Virus record (IMG/VR): IMGVR_UViG_2740892036_000009
Coordinates: 1 to 23,737 of that record
Length of the DNA stretch: 23,737 nt
Origin: a virus
Taxonomy: Duplodnaviria > Heunggongvirae > Uroviricota > Caudoviricetes
Direction: 5' to 3' (one strand)
In this document: in pieces, positions 1-11,264 of the stretch
Numbering within the stretch: position 1 is the first letter of the stretch
How the letters are laid out: the number at the start of each line of letters is the position of its first letter
Notes under the pieces: model-generated
What the model was told of the DNA's origin: nothing
Database searches by the model: none
The model's input: the letters and a program-made list of their open reading frames with translations, nothing else
Position numbers and translations under genes: made by a program

Positions 1-996
1 TTATGGACGCATTATGGACATTCCTGACACCGGGTTAAGAGTCACAGCATCTTGTAAGAAATCCGGTGCAAAGTGTGCGTAGGTCATAGTTTGCTGAATG
101 TTAGAATGACCCAGGATGCGCTGCAATGTGATTATGTTACCTCCATTCATTATAAAATGTGTGGCAAATGTATGCCTCAAAACATGTACTGCTTGTCCGT
201 CAGGTAAATCGGGTTTTACTTCCCTGAGAGCGTTACGCACTTTGTAGTAACTGGCATTAAAAAGCCTGCCTGAATTTTTGGTCTTGATCCGTTTAATCAG
301 GTCCTGCGAAACGGGAATTGTCCTGCGTTTTCCGTTTTTAGTTTTCATAAACGTAACCATCTGGTTAATGATGTGTTCAGCTTTTAAATTAGATACTTCA
401 CTCCAGCGTCCACCAGTAGAAAGGCAGACCAGAGTTGCATTTAATTCATCACCATCAAGCATGGATAACAGCCGCGTAATCTCTTCACTGGACAAAAAAG
501 CCATTTCCGTAACAGCTTCACGTAACCGTTTAATCTCACGGAACGGGTTGTGAGAGTGGTATTCACCGGCGTCAATTAACTTGGTGAACATCCCGCTCAT
601 TATTGCCAGATGTCGATTTACGCTGGCTGGTTTCAGACCATCGTTCATCATTACAACGCGATAATCAGTTATCGTTTTCTTTGTTAGCTGGTCAGCTCTG
701 GACACTCCCATTTCTGCAAATTTGGCGATTATTGTCGTTAAACGCCCCCGTTCAATATCTCCACGCTCATGTGATTTTCCGTGATATATCCACCATCTGC
801 CTAACAACTCTGTAAGAGTTCGGCGGTCGGCTGGTTTCTCCAACCACTCTTTGTTGTGGTAGTTAACCAGTACATGACGTTCGAATGCTTGAGCTTCACC
901 TTTAGTTTTAAATTTCCGCCTGATACGTTTTCCATCTGCACCCTGCGGTCTGACGTCCACTTCATAACGACCATCATCGAGCTTTTTAATAGACAT
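1..996 (-). CDS. int: tyrosine-recombinase integrase (P2 Int-like), 331 aa
   Basis: ATG at 996-994 preceded by GGAGGG SD; C-terminal catalytic signature HVLRHTFATHF ... MTYAH (H-x-x-R ... Y); position next to repressor C as in P2; stop codon is at window position 1-3. Confidence 0.85.
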   Translation of the reverse strand: MSIKKLDDGRYEVDVRPQGADGKRIRRKFKTKGEAQAFERHVLVNYHNKEWLEKPADRRTLTELLGRWWIYHGKSHERGDIERGRLTTIIAKFAEMGVSRADQLTKKTITDYRVVMMNDGLKPASVNRHLAIMSGMFTKLIDAGEYHSHNPFREIKRLREAVTEMAFLSSEEITRLLSMLDGDELNATLVCLSTGGRWSEVSNLKAEHIINQMVTFMKTKNGKRRTIPVSQDLIKRIKTKNSGRLFNASYYKVRNALREVKPDLPDGQAVHVLRHTFATHFIMNGGNIITLQRILGHSNIQQTMTYAHFAPDFLQDAVTLNPVSGMSIMRP

Positions 997-3346: not shown

Positions 3347-3618
3347 GTATTCGTATTGAAATTGGCGAACGTTATGTCGTTACCAGTGACAGCTTTCAGT
3401 TTATTCTCCACGAGAAAAAGAGAGCTGAAAGCGGTAAAAACGCCGGTCAGGAATGGCTGGCGGTGGTTGGTTATTACCCGAAATTAAGCCAGCTCGTTTC
3501 CGGCCTGATGCATCACGATATTCTGACCGGAAGCGCAAAGTCTTTTGCTGATTTAAACGCGCAGGTTGAGCAACTCAGCAGGCGTTGTTCAGAGGCTTTT
3601 GGCTCATATGGCCGTTAA
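3343..3618 (+). CDS. hypothetical early protein (91 aa), immediately upstream of A
   Basis: GGAGA SD, ATGA overlap with previous gene; conserved position before A. Confidence 0.45.
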   Translation: MSIRIEIGERYVVTSDSFQFILHEKKRAESGKNAGQEWLAVVGYYPKLSQLVSGLMHHDILTGSAKSFADLNAQVEQLSRRCSEAFGSYGR

Positions 3619-5884
3619 AGCCTCCGGGCGTTTTGTCCCTCCGTCAGCATTTGCCGCAGGCACCGGTAAGGCGTTTATCGGTGCTTATGCATGGAACGCG
3701 CCACGCGAGGCCGTCGGGCGCGAAAGACCCCTTACACGTGACGAGATGCGTCAGGTGCAAGGTGTTTTATCCACGATTAACCGCCTGCCTTACTTTTTGC
3801 GCTCGCTGTTTACTTCACGCTATGACTACATCCGGCGCAATAAAAGCCCGGTGCACGGGTTTTATTTCCTCACATCCACTTTTCAGCGTCGTTTATGGCC
3901 GCGCATTGAGCGTGTGAATCAGCGCCATGAAATGAACACCGACGCGTCGTTGCTGTTTATGGCAGAGCGCGACCAGTATGCGCGCCTGCCGGGGATGAAT
4001 GACAAGGAGCTGAAAAAGTTTGCTGCCCGTATCTCATCGCAGCTTTTCATGATGTATGAGGAACTCTGCGATGCCTGGGTTGATGCACATGGCGAAAAAG
4101 AATCGCTGTTTACGGATGAGGCGCAGGCTCACCTCTATGGTCATGTTGCTGGCGCTGCACGTGCTTTCAATATTTTCCCGCTTTACTGGAAAAAATACCG
4201 TAAAGGGCAGATGACCACGAGGCAGGCATATTCTGCCATTGCCCGCCTGTTTAACGATGAGTGGTGGACTCATCAGCTTAAAGGCCAGCGTATGCGCTGG
4301 CATGAGGCGTTACTGATTGCTGTCGGGGAGGTCAATAAAGACCGTTCTCCTTATGCCAGTAAACATGCCATTCGTGATGTGCGTGCGCGCCGCCAGGCAA
4401 ATCTGGAATTTCTTAAATCGTGTGACCTTGAAAACAAGGAAACCGGCGAGCGCATCGACCTTATCAGTAAGGTGATGGGCAGTATTTCTAATCCAGAAAT
4501 TCGCCGGATGGAGCTGATGAACACCATCGCCGGTATTGAGCGTTACGCCGCCGCAGAGGGTGATGTGGGGATGTTTATCACGCTGACCGCGCCGTCAAAG
4601 TATCACCCGACACGTCAGGTCAGAAAAGGCGAAAGTAAAACCGTCCAGCTAAATCACGGCTGGAACGATGAGGCATTTAATCCAAAGGATGCGCAGCGTT
4701 ATCTCTGCCATATCTGGAGCCTGATGCGCACGGCATTCAAGGATAATGATTTACAGGTCTACGGTTTGCGTGTCGTCGAGCCACACCACGACGGAACGCC
4801 GCACTGGCATATGATGCTTTTTTGTAATCCACGCCAGCGTAACCAGATTATTGAAATCATGCGTCGCTACGCGCTCAAAGAGGATGGAGACGAAAGAGGA
4901 GCCGCGCGAAACCGTTTTCAGGCAAAACATCTTAACCGGGGCGGTGCTGCGGGGTATATCGCGAAATACATCTCAAAAAACATCGATGGCTATGCACTGG
5001 ATGGTCAGCTCGATAACGATACCGGCAGGCCGCTGAAAGATACTGCTGCGGCTGTTACCGCATGGGCGTCAACGTGGCGCATTCCGCAATTTAAAACGGT
5101 TGGTCTGCCGACAATGGGGGCTTACCGTGAACTACGCAAATTGCCTCGCGGCGTCAGCATTGCTGATGAGTTTGACGAGCGCGTCGAGGCTGCACGCGCC
5201 GCTGCAGACAGTGGTGATTTTGCGTTGTATATCAGCGCGCAGGGCGGGGCAAATGTCCCGCGCGATTGTCAGACTGTCAGGGTCGCCCGTAGCCCGTCGG
5301 ATGACGTTAACGAGTACGAGGAAGAAGTCGAGAGAGTGGTCGGCATTTACGCGCCGCATCTCGGCGCGCGTCATATTCATATCACCAGAACGACGGACTG
5401 GCGCATTGTGCCGAAAGTTCCGGTCGTTGAGCCTTTGACTTTAAAAAGCGGCATCGCCGCGCCTCGGAGTCCTGTCAATAACTGTGGAAAGCTCACCGGT
5501 GGTGATACTTCGTTACCGGCTCCCACACCTTCTGAGCACGCCGCAGCAGTGCTTAATCTGGTTGATGACGGTATTATCGAATGGAATGAGCCGGAGGTCG
5601 TGAAGGCGCTCAGGGGCGCATTAAAACACGGGCTGAGAACGCCAAACCGTCAGCAAAGAAACGGAAGCACGTTAAAACCACATGAAATTGCACCATCGGC
5701 CAGACTGAGCCGGTCGGAACGATTGCAAATCACCCGTATCCGCGTTGACCTTGCTCAGAATGGAATCTTGCCCCAGCGATGGGAGCTTGAGGCGCTGGCG
5801 CGTGGGGCAACCGTAAATTATGACGGGAAACAATTCACGTATCTGGCTGCTGATGAGTGGCCGGGATTCTCAACAAACATATAA
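3608..5884 (+). CDS. A: replication initiation endonuclease A (rolling-circle nickase), 758 aa
   Basis: Protein from MAVKASGRFVPP... is near-identical to my recollection of P2 gpA, including the HxH-type motif region (PHWHMMLF) and active-site Tyr region (YIAKYISKNIDGY); ATG 3608 with GAGG upstream. Confidence 0.85.
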   Translation: MAVKASGRFVPPSAFAAGTGKAFIGAYAWNAPREAVGRERPLTRDEMRQVQGVLSTINRLPYFLRSLFTSRYDYIRRNKSPVHGFYFLTSTFQRRLWPRIERVNQRHEMNTDASLLFMAERDQYARLPGMNDKELKKFAARISSQLFMMYEELCDAWVDAHGEKESLFTDEAQAHLYGHVAGAARAFNIFPLYWKKYRKGQMTTRQAYSAIARLFNDEWWTHQLKGQRMRWHEALLIAVGEVNKDRSPYASKHAIRDVRARRQANLEFLKSCDLENKETGERIDLISKVMGSISNPEIRRMELMNTIAGIERYAAAEGDVGMFITLTAPSKYHPTRQVRKGESKTVQLNHGWNDEAFNPKDAQRYLCHIWSLMRTAFKDNDLQVYGLRVVEPHHDGTPHWHMMLFCNPRQRNQIIEIMRRYALKEDGDERGAARNRFQAKHLNRGGAAGYIAKYISKNIDGYALDGQLDNDTGRPLKDTAAAVTAWASTWRIPQFKTVGLPTMGAYRELRKLPRGVSIADEFDERVEAARAAADSGDFALYISAQGGANVPRDCQTVRVARSPSDDVNEYEEEVERVVGIYAPHLGARHIHITRTTDWRIVPKVPVVEPLTLKSGIAAPRSPVNNCGKLTGGDTSLPAPTPSEHAAAVLNLVDDGIIEWNEPEVVKALRGALKHGLRTPNRQQRNGSTLKPHEIAPSARLSRSERLQITRIRVDLAQNGILPQRWELEALARGATVNYDGKQFTYLAADEWPGFSTNI

Positions 5885-6371: not shown

Positions 6372-7916
6372 TTAAGCGCTGTGTTCCTTGTCGAATAAGT
6401 TCACTTCTTCTGGTGTAATATCAGTATCCATTTCTTCGAATGCATCTAAATCCACAATTTTTGTTTTTTTCAAAATTGATAGTATTTTCTGTTTGTTTTT
6501 ATTTTTGGCTGAACCCGGAATCCACTCTACATCCCACAGGCCATCAATGGTAAATGTTTTTTTTCCCTTGAGTTCATCATTTATGCGTTGACATAGGGCT
6601 GTTTTGTAATCGCCTTCCCATTGTGTGTGTATCTTCCCTTGAACTCGTTGAAACCAAATATCTAACATTTCAGTATTTGGTTGTTTACCTAGTTTACAAT
6701 GAAGTTGTTGTAACTTGCCAAATTTGAGTTCATCGTCGTCATAAAGGAAGGTCAAGAGTTTTGCGAAAATAGCCATTCCCACTGGGTAGGTGGTTGGGTT
6801 TTTAGCCATGATGCTTGAAATAATTCCAAGCATTGCATCTAGTTGATGCCCACTATTTGTGATCTTTTTCTTCCTAAATAATTTCCGCAAGAAATCATTT
6901 AAATATCTGACTGTAATTTTGGAGTTTTGATGTTTTAAAGAAAATAAATATATTGCATACAACATTTTCTGTAGGGAGTTGAACGACCCTTCTATAATAT
7001 ATTCTTTTTTTGCTGATTTAAGGGAGTGAAGAATGATGTCGTCATGTAGTTCTGTTTTTCTTGAGTTTAAATCAAGCCCAAACTCACCTAAGACCTCAAC
7101 CAAACACTTTGAGATTTTGTCCAAATCATCTTTACTGCTTGAAAATATTCGATAATCATCTCTGTAGCGAACTACTTTGTAATCCGTTATTTTTTGCTCT
7201 TCGGTTTTTTTTCTTAGCTGTAAATCAATTTCGCCTAAAATTAATTCGGCAAATGTATCCATCAACGTACTACCCAATGGTATTCCGTTTGTCTGATTAC
7301 TCATCATCATCTGGATATGAGTGTCAATCAATCGTCCTGGGTTATTGTTATTTTCTTTCTTTTTGGCCTCTTCTTTTGAGATGAATACCCATTCAAAGCT
7401 ATGAGTGTAAATAGAAGGGTAGAAGTTTGAAATATCTGTGCTGAACATGAACTCATACTCAAGAGCCAATGAAAGACTTTTTTGTTCAAAATCTTCCCAC
7501 CAGTTTAAAACAGATGCAGCTACGTTTGAGGTGTTCTTTTTGCTCACTGGGGTACTTGAGCATAAAAAAAGATCATTAGACTCAAACTCTCTAAATTTAT
7601 TCCTTATAGCATTCCAGTTGGAAGAGGATGTAATAAGTTTACAAAAATACACGTAGTACAGAGGATTAATTAGTGTTATTCGTCGCCAGCTATATAAGCC
7701 ATCTTTGCTGACTAAAACCTCGTAATTTATATTCTTCCCCATCAATGACTTGGAGTCAGGTTGGAAGTTGATTTTACCTTCATCTATCGCGGAGTTGATT
7801 TCTTCAAGCAAGGAAGAAAAATCGACATAACTGGGTAGCTCCAGAGTAGTGTATGAATCATGCTGCAGAAAATACTTAAGCGCTCTACCAGTAGTTAATT
7901 CATAAATCTTTTTCAT
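6372..7916 (-). CDS. reverse transcriptase, Abi-type (Abi-P2/AbiK-like standalone RT), ~514 aa from ATG 7916
   Basis: RT motifs in order: FMFSTDISNFYPSI (motif A Asp), GIPLGSTLMDTFAELIL (motif B), VRYRDDYRIF (YxDD motif C), LDLNSRKTEL (motif D); ~200-aa C-terminal extension; very AT-rich; occupies the tin/old cargo position of P2. Confidence 0.7.
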   Translation of the reverse strand: MKKIYELTTGRALKYFLQHDSYTTLELPSYVDFSSLLEEINSAIDEGKINFQPDSKSLMGKNINYEVLVSKDGLYSWRRITLINPLYYVYFCKLITSSSNWNAIRNKFREFESNDLFLCSSTPVSKKNTSNVAASVLNWWEDFEQKSLSLALEYEFMFSTDISNFYPSIYTHSFEWVFISKEEAKKKENNNNPGRLIDTHIQMMMSNQTNGIPLGSTLMDTFAELILGEIDLQLRKKTEEQKITDYKVVRYRDDYRIFSSSKDDLDKISKCLVEVLGEFGLDLNSRKTELHDDIILHSLKSAKKEYIIEGSFNSLQKMLYAIYLFSLKHQNSKITVRYLNDFLRKLFRKKKITNSGHQLDAMLGIISSIMAKNPTTYPVGMAIFAKLLTFLYDDDELKFGKLQQLHCKLGKQPNTEMLDIWFQRVQGKIHTQWEGDYKTALCQRINDELKGKKTFTIDGLWDVEWIPGSAKNKNKQKILSILKKTKIVDLDAFEEMDTDITPEEVNLFDKEHSA

Positions 7917-8121
7917 AATTAGTGATTTCTTCTTAAGTTGCGCACAAATAACTACCTGTTTTCTATCATGATAACGATGCGAATGCGAGCAATTCAGGAA
8001 GTGCATTACTCTGCATCGAAGCGCACGCAAGTCAGAGAACAATAACTGCCTGGCGACATCAGGACTGGCGCGCTAGTTGAGTGGTCATGCAACTGCATTA
8101 AAACCGCCCCATGAAGCGGGC

Positions 8122-8140
8122 GGGCGAGGCGGGGAAAGCA
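8122..8140 (+). other. cos: cos site: 19-nt P2-type cohesive-end sequence GGCGAGGCGGGGAAAGCAC
   Basis: Exact 19-mer as I recall it for the P2 cohesive end, followed by CTGCGCGCT; located between A-side cargo and Q as expected for a P2 prophage; recalled from memory, not searched. Confidence 0.55.
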
Positions 8141-8365
8141 CTGCGCGCTCCATTAACGACCATTGCATAATACTATTAGCCTATGAATCGAGTCATGAGA
8201 TGTTATCTTTACGATTCAGGCGAGTGCTTTCGTTACGATGAGTTGGTTTAAGCACACTATCTGCACAAAAAATAATCTGTTGAAGCGATTCATCATTCCT
8301 AACGCTCTAGAGTCTTAAATAAAAATATGTAAAATGCGTAAAATTTTTTGAATTATGGATCAGCT

Positions 8366-9448
8366 ATGCTTGGAACTTCATCACAAAGAGCTATTTCAGT
8401 ACAACATGTTGATTTAAATGTAAAGTGTTGGGTCGTTAGACCTGGGATTAAGTATAGATATTTTGCAGACTTCCTTGAACGCAATATGGTTGCTACTGCT
8501 CACTTGGATAGGTTAAGTCCAGATCAAATTGACTTTAATGATGAAATTAACCATGAAAATATTAATCAAAAGGTTGATGGGTTAGATACTATTGGTTCAA
8601 GAAATATTCATACCCAAATTGAAAATTTCCTCATAGATATGCAGGTCGGTGATGTTGTTTTCACTTTGTCAGGTGATATGGTTGTTCCTGGAGTTATTGC
8701 ATCTTCCGCGTATTTTGAGCGTGAATGTTTAGGTAATAATGAAGGGTTTCATGTAAGACGTAGAGTCACATGGGGAGAGCCAGTTCGCAGACGAGAGATT
8801 CCATTAGCTCTTCAGAAATCGTTTACTGCATACCAGACCGTATTCTCTTTGGGCGGGAAGTCAGAAGAAGTACTGCATTGGTTAATGTCATTCTTTATAA
8901 CGGATAATATTTTCTGTACTAGCTTAAGAGTCGAGCAAGCAGAAGCCATTCGGCATCATACTCTTAAGCAGCTGGCTGAGCTGGTCGATAGAGTGCAGGT
9001 ACTTGCGCTATTAATTGGCGAAGAGTTTGATGGCGAGTATACAAACGAAGTTGTTCAGTTTGAGATGGAAAGACTTTCTAATAATGGAGAGTTATCCTTG
9101 ACTGCTCAACAAATGTTGATGTCTCCGGGGGATGTTTGGCTACAATTTAAAACAAATAATAGAAAGGCCGGAATTGCGTTTATGTTAATTATGGGGGCCA
9201 TTTTTAATCATGATGTAGCCTTCGCTTCAACGGTTGATAATCGTATAAGTGAGGAACTTCGATCTCATATTGAAGGGAAAAAAGAGGTTGCAATGGATGG
9301 ATTAAACTTTGATAGAGTTTCTCAAGTTCTAGAGTTGCGTTTAAAAAGACAAAATAGAGGCTTTGTTTCTGCTCGTCCAACGAACCGTGAGATCGGACAG
9401 GGGATCAATTTCCCTGAAGATGGTGATGCGAGGCATGCGAGTGACTAA
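8366..9448 (+). CDS. hypothetical protein, 360 aa from first in-frame ATG (track start 8348 is TTG); cargo gene 1 of a two-gene operon
   Basis: Long uninterrupted ORF in a low-GC island; no catalytic or nucleotide-binding motif recognisable by eye; stop is 2 nt before the next ATG. Confidence 0.55.
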   Translation: MLGTSSQRAISVQHVDLNVKCWVVRPGIKYRYFADFLERNMVATAHLDRLSPDQIDFNDEINHENINQKVDGLDTIGSRNIHTQIENFLIDMQVGDVVFTLSGDMVVPGVIASSAYFERECLGNNEGFHVRRRVTWGEPVRRREIPLALQKSFTAYQTVFSLGGKSEEVLHWLMSFFITDNIFCTSLRVEQAEAIRHHTLKQLAELVDRVQVLALLIGEEFDGEYTNEVVQFEMERLSNNGELSLTAQQMLMSPGDVWLQFKTNNRKAGIAFMLIMGAIFNHDVAFASTVDNRISEELRSHIEGKKEVAMDGLNFDRVSQVLELRLKRQNRGFVSARPTNREIGQGINFPEDGDARHASD

Positions 9449-9450
9449 CT

Positions 9451-10140
9451 ATGAACTTTGAATTTGTAAAAGAACACTGGCTGATAATAGGCATGCTATT
9501 CATAGCATGTCTATTATTAATTTTAAAATTCAAAGATATTTACAGAACACACGATCAGTTTAATAACGTCGTGATGTCATTGTGCGCTGTTTTGACACTT
9601 GTGTGGGGAGGATATACTTTTGATGTTTTGCACCAAAGGGATAAGGCAGAAGCTGATCTTATAGAGTTAAGAAATAGAATTAGAAATACAGAATCGACAT
9701 TTTTTAATGTTGACGTTAATGTTGTTAAAATCGATGATGTGTTTTATATAAAGCCTATTGTAACTATTAGGAATAACAGTAATGAGCGAATTTATGTGAA
9801 GCTTAATAACAAGTCCCTTGCTGTTAGTCGTGTTTTATCGGCCGGTGCAAAGCAAGTCGCTACGGAAGTTTTTTATCCAAATTATTATGAGGAGTTGGCT
9901 GTTCTTAATGAAGAAAGTAGCTCGCAAGGAAAAGCTAAAAATATACCTTTATATGATATATCCGTTCCTATCTCTGCCGAAAGACGCTTGAACTATCTTG
10001 TTTCGACAAAAGAAAAAGGAATGTATTATGTAACATTTAGTGCTGAGGCAATGAACGAAGATGGCTCGCCTGTTTCTAAATACATAAATGGGAAAAAATC
10101 TATATGGTTTTCTTCTTCATATATTGAAGTTAAAGATTGA
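9451..10140 (+). CDS. hypothetical membrane protein, 229 aa, two predicted N-terminal TM helices plus soluble C-terminal domain; cargo gene 2
   Basis: Hydrophobic stretches WLIIGMLFIACLLLIL and VVMSLCAVLTLVWGGYTF; tightly coupled to gene 1; low GC. Confidence 0.55.
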   Translation: MNFEFVKEHWLIIGMLFIACLLLILKFKDIYRTHDQFNNVVMSLCAVLTLVWGGYTFDVLHQRDKAEADLIELRNRIRNTESTFFNVDVNVVKIDDVFYIKPIVTIRNNSNERIYVKLNNKSLAVSRVLSAGAKQVATEVFYPNYYEELAVLNEESSSQGKAKNIPLYDISVPISAERRLNYLVSTKEKGMYYVTFSAEAMNEDGSPVSKYINGKKSIWFSSSYIEVKD

Positions 10141-10207
10141 ATTTCTATTAAACCATATAGTAATTGAAGGTGTTGGGGGTTAATCTTGCCTGGATTGCAT
10201 AGAATCA

Positions 10208-10225
10208 CGCCGTCTGGAGACGGCG
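10208..10225. terminator. inverted repeat CGCCGTCT-GG-AGACGGCG between convergent cargo operon and Q; probable terminator hairpin
   Basis: Perfect 8-bp arms read from sequence, 10 nt beyond the Q stop; no strong U-tract on either strand. Confidence 0.4.
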
Positions 10226-10235
10226 CTAAGGGTAC

Positions 10236-11264
10236 TTAATTAGATTCTAGACTGTAATCTTTAAAGCGGATGACCTCCTGACCGAGCCAGCCGTTTATCT
10301 CGCGGATCCTGTCCTGTAACGGGATAAGCTCATTGCGGACAAAGACCTTTGCCACTTTCTCAATATCACCCAGCGACCCGACGTTCTCCGGCTTGCCCCC
10401 CATCAACTGAAAGGGGATGCGGTGCGCGTCCAGCAGGTCAGCGGCGCTGGCTTTTTTGATATTAAAAAAATCGTCCTTCGTTGCCACTTCACTGAGCGGG
10501 ATAATTTTAATGCCGTCGGCTTTCCCCTGTGGGGCATAGAGAAACAGATTTTTAAAGTTATTGCGGCCTTTCGACTTAACCATGTTTTCGCGAAGCATTT
10601 CGATATCGTTGCGGTCCTGCACGGCATCGGTGACGTACATGATGTATCCGGCATGTGCGCCGTTTTCATAATACTTGCGGCGGAACAGCGTGGCCGACTC
10701 ATTCAGCCAGGCAGAGTTAAGGGCGCTGAGATATTCCGGCAGGCCGTACAGCTCCTGATTGATATCCGGCTCCAGCAGGTGAAATACGGAGCCGGGCGCG
10801 AAGGCTGTCGGTTCGTTGAAGGACGGCACCCACCAGTAAACATCCTCTTCCACCCCACGGCGGGTATATTTTGCCGGTGAGGTTTCCAGTCTGATGACCT
10901 TACCGGTGGTGCTGTAACGCTTTTCCAGAAACGCATTGCCGAACACCAGAAAATCCAGCACAAAGCGGCTGAAATCCTGCTGGGAAAGCCACGGGTGCGG
11001 AATAAACGTTGAAGCCAGAATATTACGTTTGACGTAAATCGGTGAGCTGTGATGTACGGCAGCACGCAGGCTTTTTGCCAGACCGGTAAAGCTGACCGGT
11101 GGCTCATACCATCTGCCGTTACTGATGCACTCGACGTAATCCAGAATGTCACGGCGGTCGAGTACCGGCACCGGTTCACCAAAGGTGAATGCCTCCATTT
11201 TCGGGGCGCTGGCGGTCATTTTTTTTGCCGCTGGTCGCGGTGTTTTCCCTTTTTTCTTGCTCAT
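10236..11264 (-). CDS. Q: portal protein Q, 342 aa
   Basis: Protein matches P2 gpQ-type portal in length and sequence as recalled; start ATG overlaps P stop (ATGA). Confidence 0.85.
   Translation of the reverse strand: MSKKKGKTPRPAAKKMTASAPKMEAFTFGEPVPVLDRRDILDYVECISNGRWYEPPVSFTGLAKSLRAAVHHSSPIYVKRNILASTFIPHPWLSQQDFSRFVLDFLVFGNAFLEKRYSTTGKVIRLETSPAKYTRRGVEEDVYWWVPSFNEPTAFAPGSVFHLLEPDINQELYGLPEYLSALNSAWLNESATLFRRKYYENGAHAGYIMYVTDAVQDRNDIEMLRENMVKSKGRNNFKNLFLYAPQGKADGIKIIPLSEVATKDDFFNIKKASAADLLDAHRIPFQLMGGKPENVGSLGDIEKVAKVFVRNELIPLQDRIREINGWLGQEVIRFKDYSLESN

Follow-up and report, generated by a model that had tools for sequence, protein, structure and literature searches.

The window analyzed here, that is, the whole 23,737-nucleotide (nt) stretch of IMG/VR virus record IMGVR_UViG_2740892036_000009 (positions 1 to 23,737), is a P2-like prophage, with an integrase open reading frame (ORF; 1-996, minus strand), a gpA-like replication gene (3566-5884) and, from 10236 onward, ORFs for portal, terminase, head, lysis and tail genes. 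Between the cos site and the portal gene Q, this prophage carries two adjacent genes, denoted A and B below, that we examined as a candidate anti-phage system. The cassette and its boundaries are as follows.

8123-8141, no strand: P2-type 19-nt cohesive end of cos, GGCGAGGCGGGGAAAGCAC; exact match to P2 cosL, with 0 matches in shuffles
8150-10253, no strand: variable AT-rich segment in place of the P2 cos-Q spacer, delineated by alignment, GC content and genome counts
8150-8365, plus strand: non-coding leader 5' of gene A, the presumed promoter location
8366-9448, plus strand: gene A, 360 amino acids (aa), cytoplasmic DUF8426 (PF28530) protein; ORF from ATG
9451-10140, plus strand: gene B, 229 aa, inner-membrane partner; ORF
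10236-11264, minus strand: portal gene Q, the right boundary of the hotspot; ORF annotated in RefSeq as 'phage portal protein' that aligns with P2 Q

The cos 19-mer is the left landmark of the cargo segment. In the annotated genome of phage P2 (NC_001895), cosL spans positions 1-19, Q ends at 187 and tQ occupies 160-181, leaving a non-coding spacer of 167 bp, where the original prediction, made from the sequence alone, had assumed a few hundred bp for P2. Local alignment shows that homology to P2 stops at 8149 and restarts at 10254, within Q; thus, about 2.1 kb of DNA stands here in place of these 167 bp. The low GC content that had drawn attention to the segment is evident at 37% for 8150-10253 against 52-57% in Q and P (8145-10235, 0.372; A, 0.394; B, 0.333; Q, 0.525; P, 0.570; entire window, 0.501). 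A search for direct or inverted repeats flanking the segment, as insertion marks, found none. The two predicted ORFs of 360 and 229 codons are indeed present, with only 2 nt between the stop codon of A and the ATG of B, and B is translationally coupled to A; an alternative TTG start at 8348 would extend A to 366 aa.

Both A and B are real genes given that they have distant homologues of conserved length and accumulate far fewer nonsynonymous than synonymous differences. Database searches retrieved length-conserved homologues of A down to 38% identity (in Pseudomonas) and of B down to 53%, with B-like partners at individual loci reaching 23-25%. Comparison with homologues that are 65-69% identical gave nonsynonymous proportions (pN) of 0.17-0.21 and synonymous proportions (pS) of 0.71-0.73 for A and B, and a dN/dS of about 0.1 or less (about 0.08-0.11 for gene A), values that point to strong purifying selection on both genes.

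The locus itself is not new. The cos-proximal gpA-gpQ interval of P2-like phages has been described as a defense hotspot comprising 1,650 arrangements of genes (Rousset et al. 2022, PMC9122126), and is home to many P2 systems as a major P2 defense hotspot (Moura de Sousa et al. 2026, PMC13586616). The cassette lies squarely within this hotspot, between the gpA-like ORF 3566-5884 and Q, adjoining cos, and differs between otherwise similar prophages. Furthermore, Table S5 of Rousset et al. 2022 (PMC9122126) includes a 'hypothetical + hypothetical' arrangement, WP_024234794 + WP_024234795, that is exactly A + B, so that the idea of a site that had escaped notice has to be abandoned; both accessions appear in Table S5 only and are absent from Table S2, the list of tested systems. 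Searches of open-access papers and bioRxiv for DUF8426, for the two accessions and for EVE, YTH or PUA domains with a membrane partner yielded no account of the pair. Thus, both the locus and the pair are already catalogued, and an annotation or test of the pair was not found in the open-access literature; what is new here is the predicted joining of a modification-reader domain to a membrane partner, rather than to a nuclease, at a known hotspot.

Like other cargo of the gpA-gpQ interval (old/tin, AbiP2, retrons, DprA-PRTase, the TIR protein with a transmembrane (TM) partner of phage AC1), A and B are AT-rich, modular, rapidly swapped and located at the same place. They lie, however, between cos and Q, an interval that is free of genes in P2 itself. 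The expected variability of this cargo among P2-like prophages was confirmed by the genome counts: only 7 of the 5426 complete Escherichia coli genomes carry the cassette, at 99.8-100% identity, whereas 2119 have the cos and Q flanks alone. Among the 7 carriers, there are at least three configurations of the gpA side of cos. In the window, this side is occupied, as had been noticed, by the following reverse transcriptase gene.

6372-7916, minus strand: AbiP2-type reverse transcriptase on the gpA side of cos; full-length match to PADLOC AbiP2 (E 1.9e-159)

The second configuration (NZ_CM192140, NZ_CP068591) consists of a helix-turn-helix protein, a 316-aa reverse transcriptase and small ORFs, and in the third one (NZ_CP029180, locus L028) there is no annotated gene within 1.1 kb. 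The reverse transcriptase that replaces AbiP2 beside identical copies of A and B in the second configuration is retron-like (L001 6709-7945 in NZ_CM192140; L027 1943-3179 in NZ_CP068591). Because the same A and B genes occur with differing gpA-side cargo, the two sides of cos assort independently, and the Q side, empty in P2, is a cargo slot in its own right.

Divergent versions of the cassette were detected in 7 more E. coli genomes. One of these resides between icd and intE in an e14-like prophage (L029 5560-7289, NZ_CP060748), a location of the att-to-integrase kind that was characterized as an unusual defense slot in a 2026 paper in Nucleic Acids Research; in Serratia, A and B are likewise directly downstream of icd (L009 7001-8747). 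The other, P0010-type version (about 71% DNA and 68% protein identity) was found in draft E. coli assemblies (L005-L008, 7001-8760) at the edge of a satellite-like element that encodes a D5-type or AAA_25 primase-helicase, DUF4222, PerC and ProQ-like genes and adjoins the xdh genes. The resemblance of this element to a phage satellite of the phage-inducible chromosomal island type implies that the cassette travels on satellites too. The non-coding leader and trailer that border A and B in the window have no counterpart around the 68%-identical cassette of L005. Beyond E. coli and Serratia, A and B are present in Pectobacterium, within an integrase island together with CcdAB and TacAT and, in one strain, also AbiEi/Eii; in Pseudomonas grimontii, directly downstream of an operon for a 322-aa protein and a 317-aa reverse transcriptase (L003 3801-5719), which is probably a retron or a DRT-type system that forms a small defense island with A and B; and in Erwinia, P. 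hunanensis and several metagenome contigs. Altogether, the contexts of the pair in Enterobacterales and Pseudomonas, be they mobile elements or islands, are of at least six kinds. A scan of genome contigs recovered only 3 loci, and no homologue was found in 50,697 GenBank phage records (searched at the DNA level and with tblastn) or in 72,556 PLSDB plasmids.

The two genes stay together throughout this distribution. All B homologues that could be placed come immediately after an A homologue; the two genes are either 2-20 nt apart or overlap by 4 nt, and the pairing persists when the identity of A to the window protein drops to 23-32%. The coupling of a soluble protein to a membrane protein that the original prediction had proposed is therefore apparent well beyond this prophage, as an obligate pair in defense and toxin-antitoxin neighborhoods of other genera. 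The reverse does not apply to all distant A-like proteins. One locus from a hydrothermal-vent metagenome (L022 311-3695) encodes a solo A-like protein, with the best match to the PADLOC candidate PDC-S02 (4.5e-21; see below), with a restriction enzyme of the MvaI/BcnI type and a C5 DNA methylase encoded alongside, a neighborhood consistent with a link between the reader domain and DNA modification.

The neighbors of A and B are often retron-like, abortive-infection or toxin-antitoxin genes. From this context, we consider it likely that the cassette is an anti-phage system. The alternative that it has no defense function at all and is either an addiction pair, with B as the membrane toxin and A as the antidote, or a moron acting on envelope physiology or virulence, draws on the toxin-antitoxin pairs next to A and B in Pectobacterium, on the presence of partition systems and a cytolethal distending toxin among the gpA-gpQ cargo (Rousset et al. 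2022, PMC9122126), and on the fact that neither full-length protein is matched by a known defense model. Such a function appears rather improbable, considering that the cassette lies repeatedly, in several mobile-element hotspots, beside AbiP2, retron-like reverse transcriptases, AbiE and restriction-modification genes, that the reader-type fold of A described below is shared with a restriction-enzyme model and a defense candidate, and that the lack of a homologue on 72,556 plasmids is unexpected for an addiction module.

Protein A has turned out to be less of an orphan than had been assumed. In RefSeq, WP_024234794 is a 'DUF8426 domain-containing protein', and the identical cluster P0001 and most A homologues carry a precomputed PF28530 assignment, so that A is a member of this family. 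There are 48 clusters of A homologues, and a profile search expanded the set to 895 representative clusters (E <=0.001), mostly of 340-390 aa. Searches with hidden Markov models against NCBIfam, PHROGs and a Pfam copy that lacked PF28530 produced nothing above threshold for either A or B, the only weak matches being phrog_10226 (unknown function) for A and DUF4131 over the TM region of B; thus, at the sequence level, the statement that neither protein contains a recognizable motif was accurate. Structure prediction changes this assessment for A, which appears to adopt a known PUA-like fold, and provides an immunoglobulin (Ig)-like fold for B. The AlphaFold2 model of A (mean predicted local distance difference test score, pLDDT, 83; predicted template modelling score 0.81) comprises two domains.

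8393-8935, plus strand: N-terminal domain of A (residues about 10-190), predicted PUA-like beta-barrel of the EVE/YTH type
8954-9385, plus strand: C-terminal alpha/beta domain of A (residues about 197-340)

The structures matched by the fold of A, with their match scores, are listed below.

PH1033, an EVE-domain protein: 9.5
VcaM4I, an EVE-HNH modification-dependent restriction enzyme: 9.1
YTH m6A readers: 8.4-6.9
ASCH: 6.6
THYN1 bound to 5mC DNA: 6.1
YTH-like N-domain of Thermococcus gammatolerans McrB bound to m5C DNA: 6.1

Foldseek, in an independent search, placed VcaM4I and YTHDF2 at the top for A. The predicted structure thus contains the PUA-like beta-barrel that is characteristic of EVE, YTH and ASCH readers, and its N-terminal domain holds a putative pocket for a modified base or a modified nucleotide. 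Across 59 diverse A relatives, W22, D96, G109 and W136 are invariant, and R25, F36, H46, Q84 and F88 nearly so; the two invariant tryptophans together with the arginine and the histidine would suit a base-binding pocket. In searches of PDB sequences with profiles A1 and A3, the matches to MotB, TFEB, triosephosphate isomerase and antitrypsin were dismissed as chance.

The C-terminal domain of A has neither a detectable relative nor fold matches. It contains a conserved 'MSPGD-W' motif, in which S253 and G255 are invariant, and a conserved hydrophobic helix at residues 266-279. This helix (13-15 hydrophobic residues, helix pLDDT about 93) was considered as a possible membrane span; A has no signal peptide and no clear membrane span, the top 19-residue hydropathy window (residues 268-286) reaching 1.57.

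Among the systems to which A can be compared, the closest at the sequence level is PDC-S02, a single-gene PADLOC candidate for which the literature searched contains no validation or mechanism and gives candidate status only. The best profile, PDLC04806, matches A with an E value of 2.4e-12 (44.8 bits) over positions 3-185 of 324 and residues 20-206 of 360, so that the two have in common an N-terminal domain of about 160-185 residues. The same match was found in 57 of the 59 diverse A relatives, with similarly partial coverage (best 4.5e-21), and the relatives also match positions 300-435 of the 857-position REase_II model. Both PDC-S02 and the A+B family occur in defense-associated contexts. 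However, the C-terminal half of PDC-S02 is unlike that of A, and PDC-S02 is a single gene whereas A has an obligate membrane partner downstream. Because the profile coverage is partial and PDC-S02 is a single-gene candidate, we do not regard A as a member of PDC-S02 and treat it instead as a distant relative. With the PADLOC models used here, the analysis that the original prediction had called for produced a partial match for A and no family for B, and identified the AbiP2 gene across cos.

The predicted fold of A is shared with EVE and YTH readers of modified bases in type IV enzymes and related proteins (EVE-HNH in VcaM4I, EVE- or YTH-McrB, THYN1), although similarity of A to the Pfam families EVE, YTH and ASCH could not be detected in the sequence. 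In type IV enzymes, the reader is combined with a nuclease (HNH, PD-(D/E)xK, GIY-YIG, PLD) or a McrBC-type GTPase, none of which was matched in A or B. More generally, none of the catalytic families in Pfam, NCBIfam and PADLOC, including nucleases and NTPases, match either protein. Given that a nuclease was not found, A+B is not classified here as a type IV restriction enzyme. It would still be conceivable that the C-terminal domain of A is an unrecognized nuclease guided by the EVE-like reader, with B serving to localize it at the membrane; the likeness of A to VcaM4I would accommodate such cryptic restriction, but in view of the negative nuclease searches, we consider it very unlikely. When the EVE census of Bell et al. 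2020 (PMC7641849) was searched by terms, no membrane partner of EVE domains came up.

A working analogy for a PUA-like pocket that senses a modified nucleotide as a danger signal is provided by Metis. In type I Metis (PUA-Cal-HAD), the PUA-like domain binds m6dAMP released from degraded host DNA; type II Metis consists of MisC, a protein with 3 TM helices, and the HAD protein MisB, with a membrane-spanning effector that is triggered. Like A+B, Metis is a two-gene cassette of E. coli, and its type II relative stems from the P4/P2 hotspot study. The differences are considerable: the calcineurin-like phosphoesterase (MisA, PF00149) and HAD phosphatase (PF13419) domains of Metis are unmatched in A and B; the Metis PUA motifs 'VWWGWWxKxxExxP' and 'TPxYY' were not found upon reading A, which has 'CWVVRPG' and no WW pair; and ligand binding in type II Metis is a property of the membrane protein, which has 3 TM helices, compared with 2 TM helices and an Ig-like domain in B. 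Because the phosphoesterase and HAD domains are absent and the published PUA motifs were not found, A+B is not Metis.

The two N-terminal TM helices that had been predicted for B are supported by hydropathy and by the AlphaFold2 model, at residues 11-27 and 40-56. They form the first of two parts of the protein.

9481-9618, plus strand: membrane hairpin of B, consisting of TM1 (residues 11-27), the conserved basic loop KFKDIYRTHDQFNN and the conserved TM2 (residues 40-56); from hydropathy, counts of lysine and arginine (K/R) and AlphaFold2 helices
9697-10131, plus strand: C-terminal Ig-like beta-sandwich of B (residues 83-227), following a stalk helix that extends to about residue 80

Widening of the B family by profile search added only 4 more clusters. 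Among the B homologues, there are 0-2 K/R residues in the tail before TM1 and 2-3 in the TM1-TM2 loop, and in the majority, the charge of the segment following TM2 ranges from neutral to net acidic. Two independent variants of B (L016 1419-2030 and L023 1367-2041) lack TM1 and have 4-5 K/R in the tail before the conserved helix. Under the positive-inside rule, this pattern implies that the conserved helix runs from the inside to the outside; accordingly, the stalk and the Ig-like domain are quite probably periplasmic, and with the bulk of B on that side, the short conserved basic segment alone would face the cytoplasm. The K/R-rich tails of both TM1-less variants have a common 'L-x-K-P-F' motif that may be a docking site for protein A. 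We also examined TM1 as a lipoprotein signal or a cleavable signal peptide and rejected this assignment on the basis of the alignments, in which the cysteine is not conserved and the n-region has few or no basic residues.

This topology lends itself to a reading in which the polarity of the system is reversed: B would be an envelope sensor or anchor, with its periplasmic Ig-like domain detecting adsorption or injection, and A, held at the cytoplasmic tail of B, would be the effector that binds incoming modified phage DNA or RNA and blocks its use. The basic TM1-TM2 loop and the K/R-rich tails of the single-helix variants, which put the stalk and the Ig-like domain outside the cytoplasm, the nucleic-acid-reader fold of A, and the A-like proteins without B, which suggest that the core activity is in A, all speak for this arrangement. 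Nevertheless, no recognizable nuclease or other effector domain was found in A, the topology of B is itself deduced from the charge pattern, and PADLOC revealed no homology to Kiwa or Zorya components, so we regard reversed polarity as unlikely. It could be likened to Kiwa or to an anti-sigma factor that frees its partner. Kiwa consists of the membrane protein KwaA, with 4 TM helices, and the DNA-binding protein KwaB (DUF4868). By analogy, Kiwa and Zorya-type systems resemble A+B in combining a membrane protein with a soluble partner of the nucleic-acid-binding type, with no nuclease in the pair, and the likeness to Kiwa makes action at the DNA entry site possible. The components are different, however: instead of 4 TM helices, B has 1-2 of them plus an Ig-like domain, the soluble partner A is a PUA-like and not a DUF4868 protein, and neither A nor B is matched by the PADLOC models for Kiwa and Zorya or by Pfam for Kiwa.

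A periplasmic domain could also act directly on the envelope. Temperate phages, including those of the P2 type, often carry membrane exclusion proteins, and B, an inner-membrane protein encoded by prophage cargo with a domain that is probably periplasmic, could hinder DNA injection or receptor function, with A as a regulator or chaperone. Such superinfection exclusion would still be an anti-phage activity, but one that involves neither modified-base sensing nor cell death. We consider it highly unlikely because it leaves unexplained both the strict pairing of B with a 360-aa PUA-like protein that is under strong purifying selection and the occurrence of the pair in non-phage islands beside toxin-antitoxin and abortive-infection genes.

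We favor, tentatively and at somewhat less than an even chance, a two-component abortive infection mechanism in which A is the sensor and B is the membrane effector. In this mechanism, the PUA-like, EVE/YTH-type barrel of A would bind a modified base in the cytoplasm. The ligand could be a modified base on phage nucleic acid, for example, hydroxymethyl- or glucosyl-cytosine, as for EVE-type restriction enzymes, or else a free modified nucleotide released by phage degradation of host DNA, as in Metis. Being devoid of a nuclease or any recognizable catalytic domain, A would relay the signal via its unique C-terminal domain, which might contact the short conserved basic cytoplasmic segment (KFKDIYRTHDQFNN) and the membrane helices of B. 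B would then oligomerize or otherwise perturb the inner membrane, such that the infected cell stops phage production. We infer each of these elements, namely, ligand binding, the identity of the ligand, the contact between A and B, the direction of signaling, the membrane effect and protection from phage. The architecture, with a protein of predicted reader fold in the cytoplasm coupled to a membrane protein, is consistent with the class of sensors with transmembrane effectors.

Several observations weigh against this interpretation. With respect to defense as such, only 3 of the 8 additional P2-hotspot systems cloned by Rousset et al. 2022 (PMC9122126) were active on the phage panel, and the cargo of the P2 hotspot is in part non-defensive (partition systems, toxins). 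With respect to sensing, the PUA-like assignment of A comes from a predicted structure, the lining of the pocket by the invariant residues is putative and is suggested by conservation, and Pfam EVE, YTH and ASCH gave no match to 33 close relatives of A at E values up to 10 or to 59 distant ones at E values up to 0.1. With respect to the division of labor, distant A-like proteins occur without B, alone in L020 and beside the restriction-modification pair in L022, implying that the A scaffold can work alone and may itself hold the effector activity; furthermore, the bulk of B is probably periplasmic, a location no less fitting for a sensor or an anchor than for a pore-former. These solo A-like proteins and the probable location of the large domain of B are the main reasons why the proposed mechanism is not rated higher. 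Accordingly, of the original suggestion of a sensor coupled to a membrane effector, the sensor part gains from the predicted EVE/YTH fold of A, whereas the effector part is less certain given that B, with its probably periplasmic bulk, could equally be the sensor or an anchor.

A further proposition, which we consider somewhat unlikely, is that A and B represent a new defense family, in which a nuclease-free PUA-like reader is wired to a membrane protein with 1-2 helices and a periplasmic Ig-like domain, coupling cytoplasmic recognition to an event at the inner membrane, possibly at the DNA entry site. If true, this would constitute a new output logic for modification sensing, distinct from both type IV restriction and Metis, where readers of modified bases can drive a membrane output instead of a nuclease or an NADase. 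A reader in the cytoplasm whose partner extends a domain into the periplasm could also be informative on how envelope events and nucleic acid recognition are linked in some systems. Should the cassette prove protective, it would add to the defense repertoire of E. coli and P2 a new family whose sensor domain was predictable beforehand; otherwise, it would join the large number of gene arrangements without annotation at this well-known hotspot.

With respect to the expression of the cassette, a scan of the plus strand for the sigma-70 consensus detected no site upstream of gene A, and an Rfam search of the window, the A leader included, identified no family. On the other side of the cassette lies a possible termination signal.

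10208-10225, no strand: GC-rich hairpin of 7 bp between the convergent genes B and Q, read from the sequence

This hairpin may be a terminator at the position of P2 tQ; it has no clear U-tract, and the terminator scan made no call there. Finally, on the gpA side of cos, the program-called ORF of the AbiP2 gene opens at TTG 8042, and the likely start is the ATG at 7916 (MKKIYELTT...); the GC content of this gene, 0.35, indicates that it is horizontally acquired cargo as well. Abutting the cos 19-mer, at 8104-8123 on the minus strand, there is a G+C-rich 6-bp hairpin with a T-run on that strand, which may keep transcription of the Q/P operon from continuing across cos toward AbiP2 in the circular or integrated state of the genome.

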